Part shown: in pieces, positions 7,746 through 11,890 of the stretch
Numbering within the stretch: the stretch's first letter is position 1
Layout of the letters: the number at the start of each line of letters is the position of its first letter
Source: an uncultured Acidobacteriota bacterium
GTDB taxonomy: Bacteria > Acidobacteriota > Thermoanaerobaculia > UBA5066 > DATFVB01
DNA length: 64,000 nucleotides
Assembly: GCA_963813155.1 (NCBI GenBank)
Contig: CAWEYG010000002.1
Span: 640,001 to 704,000 of the forward strand
Direction: 5' to 3'
Program-made: the position numbers and the translations under genes
Notes under the pieces: generated by a model
The model's input: only the letters and a program-made list of their open reading frames with translations
Database searches by the model: none
Told to the model about the DNA's origin: nothing

Positions 7746-7747
7746 AA

Positions 7748-7833
7748 CCTCACCTTCGGCCTTCGGCCACCCCCTCCCGCGCTGACCAGTCGTCTGAAGG
7801 GCTGCCAGCTGGAGAGGGGGACGGGGGGTGAGG
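7748..7833. repeat. REP-like palindromic intergenic element
   Basis: CCTCACC...CCCCTCC pairs with GGAGAGGGG...GGTGAGG; inner GGCC-TTC-GGCC hairpin. Confidence 0.45.
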
Positions 7834-7852
7834 TCGTGGTAATGTTTTCGTG

Positions 7853-8182
7853 ATGTTGCGGCGTTTGCTCTCTTTCGTCCTCCTCGCGGCCCTCGCGACG
7901 ATCCTCGCCTCACCCTTCGCGGGCGCTGCGGAGGGCGCCGGCGCAATGGCCTGCTGCCGGGACGGCGCGAAGATGATCTGCTGCGCCCCTTCCGCCGGCT
8001 GCCAGATGAAGAGCTGTCCAAACTCCGATCGGGCGACGATGCTGCCGAGCCTCGAGCCGGCGGTCCCCGTGTCGACGTCCTACGAAATCGACCGGGTTCT
8101 CTGCCCGGATCCCCTCGTTTCTCTCCGAGCCGCGGCCGCGACTCTCCCCGCCCAGCCCCCCGACCAGCCTCCTCGCTTCTAA
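7853..8182 (+). CDS. Cys-rich exported leader protein with Pro-rich C-terminus (DUF2946/CutF/CruR-like)
   Basis: Signal peptide; CC-x7-CC-x5-C-x4-C cluster; ends QPPDQPPRF; extended -10 TGGTAATGT ends 7 nt before the ATG (leaderless). Confidence 0.65.
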   Translation: MLRRLLSFVLLAALATILASPFAGAAEGAGAMACCRDGAKMICCAPSAGCQMKSCPNSDRATMLPSLEPAVPVSTSYEIDRVLCPDPLVSLRAAAATLPAQPPDQPPRF

Positions 8183-8231
8183 AGCTTCCGCGCCTCAATC
8201 CCGATTCGTTTTTTTGAGGAGGTGAAGCTTG
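8168..8231 (+). promoter_or_regulatory. Hairpin sequestering the SD and start codon of the porin gene
   Basis: AAGCTTC(8182-88)/GAAGCTT(8224-30) and CCTCAA(8193-98)/TTGAGG(8214-19); anti-SD CCTCCTC at 8168-74; SD GAGGAGG at 8216-22. Confidence 0.6.
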
Positions 8232-9402
8232 AGGTCTTTCTCGAGTTCGAGGGTTCATTCGGTATTGCTACTCACGGCGCTCCTTTCTGCTCCCGCGGTC
8301 GCGCAGGAGAAAGCAATATCCCCCCAGTCGCTCGACTCCGGCTCTTCGCCGGTCGCTCTTTCCTTCGGCGATGACCCGGCCCGCAGGCTCGTCATCAACG
8401 GTTTCGGCGTCGCGACGTATGCCTACAACCTCAATACGAACGAGAACTCGTTTGCCGACAGCGCTCTCGCTATTTCTTTTTCAAAGCTGATCACGGACCG
8501 GATTTCGGTCTTCGCGCAACTGACGACCGCGCGCGAATCCGCTTCGCCGTTCGTCGGCGATACGGGAAACTTCGAAGGCGATGTTTCGACCGACATCGAC
8601 AATCTGCAACTCGCGTGGATGCCGTCACCGGCCGCCGGACTCCAGCTCACGTTCGGAAAATTCGATTCGCCGATCGCGCTGGAACGCGACGACGCTCCAT
8701 TGAACTTCCAGGCCACGAATTCCTTCACGTTCGACTTCGCGCGTCCCGTGAAGTTCACGGGAATCGAGGCGCACGAGGCGTTCTCGCCGAAGTTCGAAGG
8801 ATGGGCCATCGTCGGCAATGGCTGGGACAACGACACCGACAACAACAACGCGAAAACCGGCGCGCTCTACGCGCTCTGGAACCCGTCGCTGCGCTATCAT
8901 TTCGGCCTCGGAGTCATTCAGGGCGGCGAAAAGGAAGGTCAGACCGGAGATCAAAGGACGACGGCCGTCGCGACGATCCTGATGCAGCCCACCGATTCCT
9001 GGGTTTACGGCGAAGAGCTCGTCGCGGGGAGCGAGCCGCACGCGGCCGCTCGACGGCGGAACGGCCCGCTGGTATTCGGACATGTTTTATCTCCACCACC
9101 GCTTCGGACAGCACTGGGCGGGGACCCTGCGCGCCGAGTATTTCGACGACGCGGGAGGCTCGCGCACGGGAACGCGCCAGATCCTTCGCTCGGTGACGGT
9201 CTCTCCCCAGTATCTCGTCGGCGGCGGCTTCTACGGACTCTACCGAAACTTCGAGCATACGTCGCTGCGCCTTCCAGAAGTGACCGTCCGGCTCGACCTG
9301 AGGTGGGACCGTTCCAGCGTCGATGCCTTTCGAACGCGCGAGGAAGCCGTCGGGCGGCGCGACGCCTATTCCGCGACATTGCAGACCGTGTTTCTTTTCT
9401 AG
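8229..9402 (+). CDS. Outer-membrane beta-barrel porin (OmpL/BBP2-like), frameshift near 9050
   Basis: Signal peptide; FGKFDSPI, NGWDN..DNNNAKT, LRAEYFDD, C-terminal Phe; split over ORFs 8229.. and 9082..9402. Confidence 0.75.
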
Positions 9403-9408
9403 GAGAAG

Positions 9409-9981
9409 ATGATGGGAAAGCTTCCTCAAAGCGCGATCGAGACCCGGCTCACGGCGACGCTGTTCCTGCTGCTCCTCGGCGTCGCCAACCTGTTCGGAGC
9501 CTGGCAGGTGAAGAACTTCGCTTCGTTTTCACCCGCCGGAGTCGCCGCGACGGTCGCGCCGGAGGCCCATCACGACATGACGATGGCCTGCTGCCAGACC
9601 TCGGCCGCCGAGGAGAAGCCGGTCGACCTCGCCATGCTCGATCATCCCCGCCACCAGGTCAGCCGCGAGCTCCTCGTTCAGGACACGCACGTTCACGTCC
9701 CCGTTTACGCAATATCGGCCGCGCTGCTGTCGATGATCGTCCTGGGCCTGGTTCTCCCTTCGGGCGCTCGAGTCGCCCTGGTTCTTTGCTCGTTCGCGGC
9801 GCCGTTTCTCGATTTCGCGGGCCTTTGGGGCGCACACCTCTTTCCGTCGAAGGGAACGCTGTTCGGCCTCTTCGCGGTGGCGGGAGGCTTCGCCATGGGG
9901 CTCGCGTACCTCGTCGTGCTCGTCCTCACCCTGGCTCAGTGCTGGTTTTTCAGAAAGAAAATGGAGGCAAACCATGCGTAA
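9409..9981 (+). CDS. Four-TM membrane protein with His/Met/Cys-rich loop
   Basis: TM helices; loop HHDMTMACC; DTHVH at the start of the second TM. Confidence 0.75.
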   Translation: MMGKLPQSAIETRLTATLFLLLLGVANLFGAWQVKNFASFSPAGVAATVAPEAHHDMTMACCQTSAAEEKPVDLAMLDHPRHQVSRELLVQDTHVHVPVYAISAALLSMIVLGLVLPSGARVALVLCSFAAPFLDFAGLWGAHLFPSKGTLFGLFAVAGGFAMGLAYLVVLVLTLAQCWFFRKKMEANHA

Positions 9982-10549
9982 CATCTGTGCAGCCGGAGCC
10001 GCGCTCCTGATTTCCACATCTCTCTTCGCGCACGTGACTCCGAACGTCCAGCTCGTGCGGCGGGGAGAATTCATCCAATCGAGTCTGGCGGGGGCGGTGA
10101 AATTCTCCGAAAAGGTCCTGATGATCGGCGGTCCCGACATGGTGGCGATCAAGAACGCGACCGGCTGGAGACCGTCCGAAGAGGACGCGAAAATCTACAT
10201 TGGTCGCGACGCGACCGGCCGCCTCGTTGGGTCGGTCGCCTTCGTCTGGATGCCCTCCGAACACGGACCGATCGGGGTCGGCGCTGCTTTTGACGCGGAC
10301 GGGACGATACTCCGAGCCGAGGTCACCGATGTCGGAACCGAGCCGCTCGCCTGGGTGCGGCCCCTGATCGAGGCGAAGGGGCTCTCCGCCCTGGAAGGCC
10401 TGCGGCTGCAGGAACGCGCGAAGGGCTCCGCAATTGCCCCCCTCGTTCGGGGGAACATGACCCGCTATTACGCGGATGTGATTGCCGAGGGCATTACGCG
10501 CGCCCAGGCGCTCGAAAGGGTTTCGCGTGAGACGCCAGCCGCCCGGTGA
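9974..10549 (+). CDS. Exported FMN-binding-like (RnfG/FMN_bind fold) protein
   Basis: Signal peptide; HGPIGVGAAFDADGTILRAEVT..E resembles the FMN_bind core; no SGAT motif. Confidence 0.5.
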   Translation: MRNICAAGAALLISTSLFAHVTPNVQLVRRGEFIQSSLAGAVKFSEKVLMIGGPDMVAIKNATGWRPSEEDAKIYIGRDATGRLVGSVAFVWMPSEHGPIGVGAAFDADGTILRAEVTDVGTEPLAWVRPLIEAKGLSALEGLRLQERAKGSAIAPLVRGNMTRYYADVIAEGITRAQALERVSRETPAAR

Positions 10550-11103
10550 TCGGTCTCGCGGGAGAACGCTCCGGGAGGCGGCGATCCTCGCGGCGCTCGC
10601 GCTCCTCTTCGCCGCGGCTTCGAACCTGACGGCCCGCCCGGAGCGCCGCCTCGACTGGATCGGCAGGAGCTCCGCGGTTTCGAAGGCGGCCGTCCCGGCG
10701 GCGCCGGCCACGACCCCCGCCTCGTCTTCCGATTTTCCGCCGCACCCCGACAAGCCCTATCTCGAAATCACGCCGGACCAGGCGAAGAAACTCTTCGACC
10801 GCGGAGCGCCGTTCCTCGACGCCCGCCGCACGGTCCGTCTATCGCGAGGGCCACGTCCGGGGAGCCCGATCGCTTTCCGTCTGGGAGGCCGACCTCGACG
10901 GCAAGCTCCTCGCCCTCTCGCAGGAGAGGCTCGACCCGGCCGCACCTCTCGTCGCCTACTGCAGCGGCGGAGACTGCGAGGATTCGCATTCCCTGGCGGA
11001 ACGGCTCTGGTCGATCGGTTTCAACGACGTTCTCGTCTATCGGGACGGATTCCCCGACTGGGAAAAGCGCGGCTGGCCGGTTGAACGCGAGGCGAAAAAA
11101 TGA
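10527..11103 (+). CDS. Membrane-anchored rhodanese-like protein (frameshift near 10830)
   Basis: TM; FLDARR, then shifted frame YREGHVRGA...YCSGGDCEDS...GFPDWEKRGWP. Confidence 0.8.
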
Positions 11104-11573
11104 AACGCGTCGCCCTTCTGCTCGGGCGAGTCGCTCTCGGCGCCGTCTTCCTCGTCGCCGCGGGACCGAAGATCGCCGACCCGCCGGGATTCGCGCACAT
11201 GGTCTCGAACTACCTCCTCGTGCCGGCGCCCGCGGTCAACTTCCTGGCCCTCTTCCTTCCGTGGATCGAGATGCTGGCGGGCATCGCGCTCGTCACCGGC
11301 GTGTTTTGGAGAACCGGCGCGAAACTCTCGGCGGCGCTCCTCGTCCTCTTCATTCTGGCGATCGGCATCAACCTCGCGCGGGACCACGCGGTCCAGTGCG
11401 GCTGCTTCGACGTCCACGCCGCCGAAAAGAGCCACGCCCAATTGATCGGAGAGATGCGGTGGGTCGTCGCGAGGGACCTCGGGCTTCTCGCGGTCGCCGT
11501 CGGGCTCTCCCTTTCTAAAGAGGATCGGCGAACGGCCGGCTTTCTGAGAGAATCCCCCCGGGAGGAAGAATGA
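11100..11573 (+). CDS. MauE/DoxX-family membrane protein
   Basis: LGAVFLVAAGPKIADP, LPWIE, CGCF, RDL motifs. Confidence 0.88.
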   Translation: MKRVALLLGRVALGAVFLVAAGPKIADPPGFAHMVSNYLLVPAPAVNFLALFLPWIEMLAGIALVTGVFWRTGAKLSAALLVLFILAIGINLARDHAVQCGCFDVHAAEKSHAQLIGEMRWVVARDLGLLAVAVGLSLSKEDRRTAGFLRESPREEE

Positions 11574-11890
11574 AGATCCGACTTTCCCTGATCGTTCTGG
11601 CCGGTTACGCGTCTCTCGCGGCGGCCGCCTACAAGCCCTCGAGCCTCTTCGTCCAGCGGTGCGCGAAATGCCACGGCGAAGACGGCCGCGCCCAGACCCC
11701 GAAGGGGCAGAAAATGAAAGCGCGCGATTTCACCGACGCCAAATTCCAGACGGACAAGACCGACGCGCAGCTGATCGACTCGGTCACGAACGGAACCGAA
11801 ATGGACATGCCCCCGTTCGGCAAGGTCCTCTCGGCCGCCGAAATCGAAAAGCTCGTCAAAGAGGACGTTCGGGGATTCGGGAAGAAGTAG
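11570..11890 (+). CDS. Monoheme class I cytochrome c
   Basis: Signal peptide, CAKCH, distal Met in MPPF. Confidence 0.9.
   Translation: MKIRLSLIVLAGYASLAAAAYKPSSLFVQRCAKCHGEDGRAQTPKGQKMKARDFTDAKFQTDKTDAQLIDSVTNGTEMDMPPFGKVLSAAEIEKLVKEDVRGFGKK

Follow-up and report, generated by a model that had tools for sequence, protein, structure and literature searches.

The window, meaning the whole 64,000-nt stretch of DNA analyzed here, carries a short leader ORF directly upstream of a gene for an outer-membrane porin, behind which further genes follow on the same strand. An earlier note on this DNA had drawn from it a candidate metal-responsive translation switch, and all the elements on which that proposal was built (the ORF, a cysteine cluster, a proline-rich tail, two pairs of hairpin arms, the SD of the porin gene and its TTG start) are present in the sequence (Table 1). 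The leader ORF has a GC content per codon position of 0.66/0.60/0.83. Its N-terminus, MLRRLLSFVLLAALATILASPFAGA, is first basic, then hydrophobic, and ends in small residues; basic residues followed by a hydrophobic stretch recur in 16 of 16 rows of the family alignment A2; both assessments were made by eye, and they agree with the signal peptide read there before. The cluster comprises C34, C35, C43, C44, C50 and C55, with a seventh cysteine at residue 84. Two Logan contigs of run X1 span positions 7805–7993 and 7995–8288 with 0 differences from the window, an agreement that provides no independent support because X1 may be the source sample.

Table 1. Features of the leader locus and the gene row behind it (positions within the window).
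Feature	Position	Strand	Basis or remark
Extended −10-like box TG-n-TAATGT, 7 nt 5′ of ATG 7853	7837..7845	+	Sequence
Alternative leader start GTG	7850	+	ORF listing, which gives 7850–8182 from GTG
Leader ORF, 109 codons + TAA	7853..8182	+	ATG 7853; stop TAA 8180–8182
Signal-peptide-like N-terminus, residues 1–25	7853..7927	+	By eye from translation and alignment A2
Cys cluster CC-x7-CC-x5-C-x4-C, C34 to C55	7952..8017	+	Presumed sensing motif
Tail PPDQPPRF, presumed arrest motif; PPR = residues 106–108	8156..8179	+	Conservation, CutF likeness
Anti-SD CCUCCUC from Pro-Pro-Arg codons	8168..8174	+	CCT CCT CGC at 8168–8176
Intergenic hairpin AAGCUUC/GAAGCUU + CCUCAA/UUGAGG	8182..8230	+	Minor second SD mask in this genome
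Hairpin arms, outer: AAGCTTC with GAAGCTT	8182–8188 with 8224–8230	+	
Hairpin arms, inner: CCTCAA with TTGAGG	8193–8198 with 8214–8219	+	
Porin SD GAGGAGG	8216..8222	+	Duplex with anti-SD −13.5 kcal/mol
BBP2/OmpL-like outer-membrane porin, TTG start 8229–8231	8229..9402	+	Pfam PF07642 on both halves
190-aa membrane protein, Aq_1264_TM-like	9409..9981	+	Nearest Atlas clusters PF27139 (score 0.95, 233 shared features)
191-aa exported protein, RnfG/NqrC-like (FMN-binding) fold	9974..10549	+	AF2 model, pLDDT 81.4
MauE/DoxX membrane protein	11100..11573	+	Pfam
c-type cytochrome, end of same-strand gene row (11100..11890 with MauE/DoxX)	11570..11890	+	Pfam

No SD precedes the leader's ATG, and a consensus sigma-70 scan found no full promoter at the leader. 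Of 39 homologous loci, 33 have a TAnnnT hexamer that ends 6–12 nt 5′ of the start codon; among random 15-nt spans the figure is 23 of 3314 (0.7%). A search for RNA runs that contain the locus found none. Because the −10-like box sits so consistently just before the start, the leader mRNA is, judging from the sequence, probably leaderless or nearly so, in line with the note's description of the ORF.

The leader ORF belongs to a conserved family. A search of 1.84 billion proteins recovered 92 cluster representatives at E <= 1e-3, and of the 175 genomes of the order, 41 carry a homolog (per family: 6/6, 33/105 and 1/63). All named relatives are annotated as 'hypothetical protein' and carry Acidobacteria or Thermoanaerobaculia labels. 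The protein matches no family in Pfam (at E <= 0.1) or NCBIfam, and the precomputed Pfam field is empty ('-') for 34 of 34 listed homologs. Conservation is concentrated at the C-terminus: 82 of 93 family members have PPR no more than 10 residues from the end, a result that bears out the importance the note had given to conservation of the tail, and in 73 of these 82 exactly one residue and then the stop follow. PPPR is present in 52 of the 73, most relatives ending in DPPPRG/A, and the window protein ends in QPPRF, with two consecutive prolines only. P106, P107 and R108 are invariant in alignments A1, A2 and A5, and in the 70 rows of A5 they are the sole invariant columns. The codon of the arginine differs among loci (CGC, CGG, CGA) while the residue itself is kept, a pattern that speaks for selection acting at the peptide level. 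The genome also encodes EF-P.

The cysteine cluster is the other conserved element. C34 and C35 are invariant in the 16 rows of A2 and retained in at least 90% of the 70 alignment rows, and C43 and C55 occur in at least 90% of the A2 rows. Family proteins have a median of 6 cysteines, arranged as CC-x(6-8)-CC-x(4-6)-C-x4-C, a cluster richer, as the note had remarked, than the CXXC or CxxxC of known leaders. We presume this to be the sensing motif, with metal binding as its putative activity. The stretch from the last cysteine of the cluster to PPR measures 51 residues in 44 of the 82 members, with 16 at 50 and 8 at 52, so that the spacing stays at 50–52 in 68 of 82 although the sequence of the linker varies. 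A RiPP precursor or bacteriocin was considered and rejected, as inspection of the neighboring ORFs by eye turned up no maturation genes and conservation falls on the tail and the ruler-like spacing rather than on a core peptide.

The codons of the tail bear on the RNA as well. Strong SDs precede the downstream gene in most homologous loci, and RNA folding assigns 0.79 of the pairing probability of the SD core in the window to the tail codons. In 22 of 38 loci the SD core pairs with the PPPR codons at a probability of 0.5 or more, compared with a dinucleotide-shuffle mean of 0.08, and with a 21-nt span the count was 23 of 38. The remaining 15–16 loci have an SD without predicted tail pairing (6 with an intergenic partner, 5 with a partner further upstream in the ORF, the rest with no clear partner); these mostly have longer spacers or a different downstream gene. 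The spacer between leader and porin measures 46 nt in the window and 39–68 nt in 29 of 38 loci. A tail and its cognate SD form a more stable duplex than non-cognate combinations do (−17.8 vs −16.5 kcal/mol; permutation p = 0.004 over 29 loci, a significance overstated because related genomes are not independent). Codon usage points the same way, with qualifications: CCUCC occurs in 59 of 109 ordinary PPP motifs of this genome, and a plain CCU/CCUCC habit extends genome-wide, 207 of 890 PP pairs carrying the signal. As the codon signal is thus partly background, we relied on the 8-mer CCUCCUCC, found in 14 of 22 family PPP tails (cluster representatives) but in 6 of 109 ordinary PPP motifs of this genome, an enrichment of ~12-fold; only this longer motif, not CCUCC, is clearly enriched.

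Several global measures were unremarkable. Overall pairedness of the SD did not exceed that of shuffles, and since the shuffles of this GC-rich RNA already pair at ~0.8, the measure is uninformative and partner-specific measures were used instead. With the tail masked in the model, the SD still paired at 0.48–0.97, and the local fold of 8150–8260 is unexceptional (z = −0.78; 42 of 200 shuffles fold as well). What carries the case for a switch is conservation: tail, Cys-to-tail spacing, tail–SD pairing and −10 box recur in homologous loci. In the earlier proposal the SD was sequestered by the intergenic hairpin, and the complementarity of the Pro-Pro-Arg codons was an aside. The hairpin has a predicted energy of −16.0 kcal/mol, yet it accounts for 0.11–0.12 of SD pairing probability, and inspection by eye did not find its outer stem in either of the two same-genus loci, L002 and L005. 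Masking of the SD is kept across the 22–23 loci given above, but the hairpin as drawn is not the conserved partner, its outer stem being specific to this genome; that role falls to the PPPR codons.

The gene behind the leader was rightly named as a porin; PF07642 places it among the BBP2 porins. In the window its reading frame appears shifted near 9048, the change falling between 9047 and 9052 relative to the porin of locus L005. Contigs of run X1 lack one base at 9048; we therefore rejected a pseudogenized porin and regard an assembly error or a strain difference as the probable origin of the extra base. Relatives carry intact porins of ~390 aa downstream of the leader. The Aq_1264_TM-like gene stays behind the porin in relatives, with the same order in loci L077, L078 and L079; its product has no match in the local Pfam copy, and a literature search for Aq_1264 found no papers. 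The 191-aa protein likewise has no Pfam match and no PDB sequence match, and a Foldseek search with its model returned RnfG (9eri_G; E = 1.3e-5, TM 0.57) and also NqrC (4xhf). A rhodanese is among the genes behind the porin, and a Cu/Zn-SOD lies upstream of the leader. In genome G004, which has the same gene row, the MauE homolog forms a fusion with CusF and SCO1/SenC copper domains.

Comparison with described systems was centered on the DUF2946 leaders. No member of the family was hit by the DUF2946 HMM, neither the window protein nor, at E <= 0.05, any of the 92 representatives, and in a six-frame search of the whole genome PF11162 scored at best 14.1 bits, elsewhere in the genome, against a cut-off of 23.7 bits. 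An hhalign comparison of A2 (16 sequences) with a profile of four acidobacterial DUF2946 proteins (A3) gave a probability of 3.4%, with only the signal peptides aligned; the small size of that profile limits the power of the comparison. The CXXC/CxxxC metal motif of DUF2946 is absent from the leader family. Canonical RAPP-type DUF2946 genes occur in 4 of 301 genomes of the phylum and form a family separate from the leader. Spacing from cysteines to arrest motif is kept as tightly as in DUF2946, but at 50–52 residues; CutF and CruR keep ~45, and altered spacing impairs CruR (PMC9973294, PMC9426467).

CutF of Rhodobacter capsulatus, encoded in cutFOG, has the arrest motif P109EPEGPPPRL118, and a change of its PPP to PAP abolishes copper control, according to a preprint (bioRxiv 10.1101/2025.02.05.636593). 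The CutF tail alone caused no arrest in E. coli reporter fusions (PMC9973294). The present leader resembles CutF in build: a small leader, cis-acting and Sec-exported there and presumably so here; a Cys motif at a fixed distance from a C-terminal PPPR-x-stop (~45 residues in CutF, 51 here); corresponding tails (GPPPRL-stop in CutF; DPPPRG/A in most relatives and QPPRF in the window here); an anti-SD strand, predicted in the present case, by which the following gene's SD is masked; and only a short distance between the two genes. The tail had earlier been described as non-RAPP, and RAPP is indeed absent; it is nevertheless not a new tail, since PPPR, one residue and a stop, as found in most members, is the arrest layout of CutF. 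There are also differences. CutF carries CxxxC rather than the six-Cys CC..CC..C..C, its anti-SD is described in an intergenic stem-loop rather than within the arrest codons, its target is a multicopper oxidase rather than a BBP2 porin with putative electron-transfer proteins, and the mRNA of the present leader is probably leaderless. The hosts differ too, Acidobacteriota here, mainly Pseudomonadota and Bacteroidota in the published CutF-like lists (PMC9973294). Three of the four filters that Ozturk et al. 2023 applied to CutF-like proteins hold for the window protein, namely a length <150 aa (109 aa), PP among the last 15 residues at the C-terminus (at 106–107) and a same-strand downstream gene at a spacer <1000 nt (46 nt, porin); the fourth, a Sec signal peptide, was judged by eye only. 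Two small supplementary files of that study (PMC9973294) contain no Acidobacteria, BBP2 or porin terms, and its full list (File S1) may already include members of the family. Our literature searches found no description of it, as the note had supposed for this lineage.

CruR (Bp2923 of Bordetella pertussis; DUF2946/PF11162; PMC9426467) is likewise an ORF placed upstream of its target, there the gene of an outer-membrane transport protein; its Cys motif and proline arrest motif stand at a conserved distance, and its 3′ end has a C-rich stretch. It differs in its CXXC and RAPP motifs, the latter three residues from the end, in acting by Rho-dependent termination across a 162-nt spacer, in being independent of its own signal peptide and of EF-P, and in that copper relieves its arrest. 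In the export-monitoring peptides SecM, VemP and MifM, C-terminal arrest of an exported nascent chain likewise uncovers the SD of the following gene, and release depends on what happens at the translocon; unlike the present leader, they monitor export capacity through intrinsic arrest sequences without a Cys cluster, and their targets are SecA, SecDF and YidC2.

Most likely, the leader works as a translation switch of the CutF/CruR type that senses a metal or the redox state. On balance we also consider it probable, by analogy with CutF, that the ORF acts in cis and senses through its own nascent chain, with a CutF-like build and no detectable relation to DUF2946; because that homology is lacking, the function assigned is one of analogy. 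The earlier interpretation is partly supported: it stands on the conserved tail, the masked SD, the lack of a DUF2946 match and the porin target, and gives way on the hairpin as the partner and on the novelty of the tail. Computation shows the anatomy and how well it is kept, a spacing that stays constant, the pairing as predicted and the −10 box; on that basis we infer export, arrest, a ligand and a direction of control, along the following lines. The mRNA would start at or beside the ATG, and the nascent peptide would be exported co-translationally via Sec. On arrival at the Pro-Pro(-Pro)-Arg codons, which lie two codons ahead of the stop, the ribosome would be held by slow peptide-bond formation, with the Cys cluster then ~51 residues behind the catalytic center. 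Since this length approximates exit tunnel plus membrane (roughly 30 + 17 in the reckoning of the CutF authors), the cluster should lie near the outer mouth of the translocon. The fate of the cysteines there, whether they bind Cu(I) or a different thiophilic metal or form disulfides, would set how long the ribosome dwells. A paused ribosome would cover the CCUCCUC anti-SD and free the GAGGAGG of the porin; once it terminates and leaves, the tail/SD helix would re-form. The length of the pause would in this way set translation of the BBP2 porin, and may also set that of the Aq_1264_TM-like protein, the RnfG/NqrC-like protein, the rhodanese, MauE and the cytochrome c. Copper is the favored ligand on gene context (the Cu/Zn-SOD and the MauE–CusF–SCO1 fusion). 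By analogy, metal could lengthen the pause and turn the porin ON, as in CutF, or relieve it and turn the porin OFF, as in CruR.

The same switch could answer to a different signal, the cluster reporting periplasmic oxidative folding or thiol redox and the pause following envelope redox stress. MauE/DoxX, rhodanese and Cu/Zn-SOD are its neighbors, a set that we take to resemble the mycobacterial SodA–DoxX–SseA thiol-stress complex. Six cysteines exceed the need of a single metal site, and in the 2025 model of CutF disulfide formation relieves the stall (bioRxiv 10.1101/2025.02.05.636593). Against a redox signal stand the CusF and SCO1 domains fused to MauE in G004 and the response of both characterized systems of this build to copper. 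Adjacent CC pairs, moreover, suit Cu(I)-thiolate binding, and we regard redox as an unlikely alternative to a metal. Sensing might also be absent altogether: in plain translational coupling any ribosome reading the leader would open the helix, PPP would lengthen the opening, and porin synthesis would be tied to transcription of the leader. The pairing of tail codons with the SD and the short spacers (39–68 nt in 29 of 38 loci) suit such coupling, but it leaves unexplained the export signal, the Cys cluster with C34 and C35 so widely retained, and a cluster-to-tail distance of 50–52 residues across a variable linker; we rate it slightly lower, as improbable.

Less probable again is an attenuation like that of CruR, in which the paused ribosome shields a C-rich Rho-loading site, instead of or in addition to unmasking the SD. 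Through the final ~120 nt of the ORF and over its stop codon, C is in excess of G by a base fraction of 0.13–0.25 (mean of 41 loci), and by up to 0.35 in the window, and this mode of action is that of CruR itself (PMC9426467). The C excess may, however, stem simply from Pro/Ala-rich coding, the spacers are short beside the 162 nt of cruR, and attenuation needs no conserved SD complementarity. A stable periplasmic Cys-rich metal binder, made together with the porin and serving as a chaperone or a buffer like metallothionein, would fit the signal peptide, the six or more cysteines and the copper-related neighborhood, and would make PPPR a structural or recognition element and the SD pairing incidental. 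CutF itself is degraded after export (PMC9973294), which speaks against such a binder, as do the linker of fixed length and varying sequence, the ~12-fold excess of CCUCCUCC over ordinary PPP motifs and the stop exactly one residue past PPR in 73 of 82 members. We hold it to be very unlikely.

Returning to the sensing switch, a more far-reaching version appears possible, though we advance it tentatively: that these leaders are independently evolved acidobacterial nascent-chain sensors rather than DUF2946 homologs, leaderless and with arrest codons that double as anti-SD, which gate the porin and an electron-transfer pair (Aq_1264_TM and an RnfG/NqrC-like flavoprotein) for copper acquisition or reduction in cuproenzyme assembly. 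To our knowledge, CutF and CruR are the only characterized nascent exported peptides that turn metal sensing into ribosome pausing, and both are proteobacterial DUF2946 proteins. The same design—export signal, Cys motif, ruler, PPPR-x-stop and masked SD—in an abundant soil phylum and without detectable homology would point either to very deep divergence or to convergence on one physical solution, the ruler in the latter case being set by tunnel length and membrane thickness. A leaderless mRNA whose arrest codons serve as the anti-SD would, if true, be the most compact form of such a switch, and with the anti-SD placed within the arrest codons, effects of the peptide and of the RNA can be told apart by synonymous recoding. 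The locus would also give a regulatory handle on three families without assigned function, the BBP2 porin, Aq_1264_TM and the RnfG-like periplasmic protein, and suggests that all three take part in copper or redox handling at the cell envelope.

The leader ORF that precedes the BBP2 porin gene carries every element ascribed to it in the earlier note. Read from its ATG, it encodes a 109-aa peptide (P0001) with a basic and then hydrophobic N-terminus (MLRRLLSFVLLAALATILASPFAGA) that by eye resembles a signal peptide, a cluster of six cysteines at residues 34, 35, 43, 44, 50 and 55, a seventh cysteine at residue 84, and the C-terminus PPDQPPRF; neither Pfam nor NCBIfam returned a family match for the protein. 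Both pairs of arms of the proposed intergenic hairpin also lie where they had been placed. The observation is confirmed, and the interpretation given to it, a metal-sensing ribosome-arrest switch, is partly supported after corrections.

Features of the leader locus and the genes behind it, in window coordinates
Feature	Position	Remark
Palindromic element	7746-7836	between sodC stop and -10-like box
-10-like box TG-n-TAATGT	7837-7845	ends 7 nt before the ATG
Leader ORF, as listed	7850-8182	ATG at 7853
Final sense codons of leader	8168-8179	CCT CCT CGC TTC
Leader stop	8180-8182	TAA
Hairpin, outer stem	8182-8188 with 8224-8230	
Hairpin, inner stem	8193-8198 with 8214-8219	
Porin SD	8216-8222	GAGGAGG
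Porin start	8229-8231	TTG
Porin frame shift	between 9047 and 9052	
Aq_1264_TM-like and RnfG/NqrC-like pair	9409-10549	
Membrane protein, first gene behind porin		186-200 aa (L077 191, L078 186, L079 200)
Rhodanese	10482-11103	split over two frames near 10830; PF00581 match at 10828-11100
MauE/DoxX protein	11100-11573	

No SD accompanies the -10-like box in front of the leader, and the consensus promoter scan returned no complete sigma-70 promoter. Across the homologous loci, a TAnnnT hexamer ending 6-12 nt before the start recurs in 33 of 39, as against 23 of 3314 random spans; from this recurring box beside the start codon we infer, with good support at the level of sequence, that the ORF is expressed leaderless, as the earlier note had supposed. 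The leader is preceded by a gene for Cu/Zn superoxide dismutase (sodC; PF00080, E = 1e-38). The long palindromic element behind this gene folds at -54.7 kcal/mol, and both its arms are found many times over, on several contigs, which suggests a repeat of REP or MITE type. At 7805 and 7834-7836, a number of contigs of the sequencing runs X1 and X2 end or depart from the window.

A word-based search recovered one leader homologue. Six-frame searches of 61 related genomes (E <= 0.01) located the ORF in 15, all six of the same family among them. Profile searches recovered it in 19 of 401 genomes of a class sample; at the level of the order, 41 of 175 genomes have it (6/6, 33/105 and 1/63 in families f1, f3 and f2, respectively). 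In a phylum sample it occurred in 6 of 401 genomes, three of them outside the order; one of these loci, L080, ends in ...DLSDPPPRG-stop and is followed by a gene that by eye resembles the other porins. Against 1.84 billion cluster representatives, the profile retrieved 92 proteins at E <= 1e-3 and 39 at <= 1e-10, mostly of 99-125 aa. Among the 34 proteins listed by another profile search, 'hypothetical protein' is the only given name, two are labelled 'Thermoanaerobaculia bacterium' and 'Acidobacteria bacterium', and precomputed Pfam domains are absent throughout; the leader's neighbors in the Atlas protein cluster resource are likewise unnamed Acidobacteriota clusters. The counts for related genomes, class, order, codons, SD pairing and the -10 box include loci from genomes flagged as unpublished: L005/L018 (G002), L061 (G712) and L063 (G724).

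The Pfam HMM of DUF2946, the family of the known leaders CutF and CruR, matched neither the window protein, nor the locus in a whole-genome scan, nor any of the 92 representatives. An hhalign comparison of a four-sequence DUF2946 profile with the family profile reached a probability of 3.4% and aligned the signal peptides alone. Given both results, we do not file the family under DUF2946, in line with the earlier note, which had called the switch analogous. Of 301 genomes sampled across the phylum, 4 have canonical DUF2946 genes (L035-L038; three above the cut-off), with HCxxC motifs and RAPP/RGPP tails, one of them preceding a long ORF that looks receptor-like by eye; both leader types therefore exist in Acidobacteriota. 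By the operational filters that Ozturk et al. set for 'CutF-like' proteins, the family would qualify (with the signal peptide judged by eye), and the literature searched, which did not extend to list D of that study, yielded no account of leaders of this kind from Acidobacteria.

Alignments of 8, 16 and 70 sequences all keep P106, P107 and R108 without exception. Among 93 proteins (P0001 and the 92 representatives), PPR lies at most 10 residues from the end in 82, so the tail is conserved in homologs, as the proposed switch had implied, and exactly one residue follows it in 73 (A 36, G 27, S 4, V 3, others 3). In these 73, Pro precedes PPR in 52 and Asp stands one position further upstream in 43. 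Among pause motifs that depend on EF-P, DPP and PPP rank with the strongest, and an EF-P gene is present in this genome. The tail Arg is kept across differing codons (CGC, CGG, CGA), a sign that the peptide itself, and not the RNA only, is under selection. The 11 proteins without PPR near the end are partly fragment-like and partly carry different Pro-rich ends. Of the 42 extracted loci, 38 have the PPR tail, which in L002 (PPPDKPPRV-stop) appears only after a frame change, and the other four (L028, L067, L070, L072) form a sub-branch, whose members end in ...PDPVP(R/K)LLS or ...PPDHVPLLLV. The PPPR-x-stop layout of most members is also that of the experimentally studied CutF arrest motif P109EPEGPPPRL118, for which a preprint reports that Cu-regulated production of CutO is lost when PPP becomes PAP, and that EF-P plays a part (bioRxiv 10.1101/2025.02.05.636593).

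The distance from the last cysteine of the cluster to the first Pro of PPR is nearly fixed: of 82 proteins, 44 have 51 residues, 16 have 50 and 8 have 52 (range 35-56), across a linker of poorly conserved sequence and with leader lengths clustering at 103-109 aa. In CruR and CutF, about 45 residues separate the Cys motif from the arrest motif, and altered spacing impairs CruR (PMC9426467); by the CutF authors' estimate, the ribosomal tunnel takes up about 30 residues and membrane crossing about 17 (PMC9973294). A fixed 51 fits the CutF picture, in which the Cys cluster would leave the translocon as the ribosome reaches PPR.

At the RNA level, the fold of 8150-8260 is unremarkable (z = -0.78; 42 of 200 shuffles fold equally well), so the argument must rest on comparison across genomes. 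In the window, the SD core is predicted to place 0.79 of its pairing probability on the tail codons and 0.11-0.12 on the intergenic arm. Across 38 loci, the SD is predicted to pair with a 15-nt PPPR window at >= 0.5 in 22, with a mean of 0.53 versus 0.08 after dinucleotide shuffling of the upstream sequence, in line with the anti-SD read from the Pro-Pro-Arg codons. With a 21-nt window, the tail is the partner in 23 of the 38, the main partner being intergenic in 6, further up the ORF in 5 and downstream in none; where SD-tail pairing is missed, the spacer is mostly longer (79-140 nt) or another gene follows the leader. Taken overall, the SD is no more paired than in shuffles, so partner choice alone is informative. 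Cognate tail/SD duplexes average -17.8 kcal/mol versus -16.5 for non-cognate ones (29 loci with spacers <= 70 nt; permutation p = 0.004). In L005 and L059, a rare CCA as first Pro codon is matched by GGAGGUG(G) in the SD region, giving a longer helix; apart from this CCA/UGG example, no claim depends solely on the loci from unpublished genomes. The intergenic hairpin of the earlier note is present and, at -16.0 kcal/mol, more stable than the bare tail/SD helix (-11.6), but it is a minor partner of the window SD and its outer stem is by eye absent from both same-genus loci (L002, L005), which retain a pyrimidine CCUC-type stretch right after the stop. We read the hairpin as a second, local way of masking the SD.

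Tail prolines are encoded by CCT in 70 of 110 cases, versus 50/458 elsewhere in the same ORFs and 68/725 in downstream genes (42/70 versus 27/240 after clustering the loci at 50% identity), with a genome-wide share of 6.2%. Part of this enrichment is weakened by ordinary genes of the genome, in which PP is spelled CCT-CCN in 207 of 890 cases and CCTCC occurs within PPP in 59 of 109, so that this 5-mer, present in 21 of 22 family representatives, is expected about half the time. The 8-mer CCTCCTCC occurs in 14 of 22 representatives versus 6 of 109 control PPP (binomial p = 5e-13, overstated because related genomes are not independent). More generally, ordinary genes of this 66% GC genome use CCT for 16% of prolines in PP and 23% in PPP versus 6% overall, and the resulting 54% of PPP with CCTCC confounds naive anti-SD counts.

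With modest confidence, we favor a CutF-type switch: a ribosome paused on PPR would cover the anti-SD and free the porin SD, an SD-unmasking architecture of the type of CutF's, while the state of the exported Cys cluster would set the length of the pause. Under CutF logic, metal would prolong the pause and turn the gene on; under CruR logic, it would relieve the pause and turn the gene off, which would suit a porin that might admit copper beside cuproenzyme-assembly domains. The same device reading disulfide or redox state instead is rather unlikely, and plain pause-coupling with nothing sensed is unlikely. We hold a CruR-like Rho attenuation to be quite improbable, though the surplus of C relative to G across the final ~120 nt of the ORF is compatible with it, and a leader product serving as a stable metal-binding protein very improbable.

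The gene after the leader encodes a BBP2/OmpL-like porin (PF07642), with a MauE/DoxX protein and a c-type cytochrome farther downstream on the same strand. In contigs of X1, possibly the source sample, one base is missing at 9048 (depth 16.2 of 16.2), and relatives' porins are intact at ~390 aa; the porin frameshift thus most likely reflects a mistake in the assembly or a difference between strains. A dead porin gene is disfavored by those X1 contigs. Behind the porin, L077, L078 and L079, three longer loci, share one gene order. First in this row is the membrane protein, with a His/Met/Cys-Cys loop, HHDMTMACC; for the copy in the window, the closest Atlas clusters carry PF27139 (Aq_1264_TM). 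The second gene encodes an exported ~190-aa protein whose AF2 model (pLDDT 81.4) matches the FMN-binding subunits RnfG and NqrC (E = 1.3e-5, TM 0.57); in the window and the three loci, the pair may form an envelope electron-transfer module. The rhodanese follows (PF00581, E = 6e-10), its split being a possible second indel in this assembly. In G004 (L077, 7442-8734, minus strand of the locus), the same gene row contains a 430-aa MauE/DoxX fusion with CusF and SCO1/SenC copper-binding domains, which the window MauE lacks. On account of these target-row genes, including the fusion, the copper link of the leader locus is circumstantial but recurrent. In some relatives, the leader precedes a different ORF with CGSATCP-type or CSMCRC-type motifs at its start and no Pfam match. 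In L003, L004, L010, L011 and L081, this is a ~326-aa ORF in place of the BBP2 porin, with CGSA(T/N)C just after the N-terminus, possibly another type of outer-membrane target; in L028, it is a ~308-aa ORF starting with CSMCRC.
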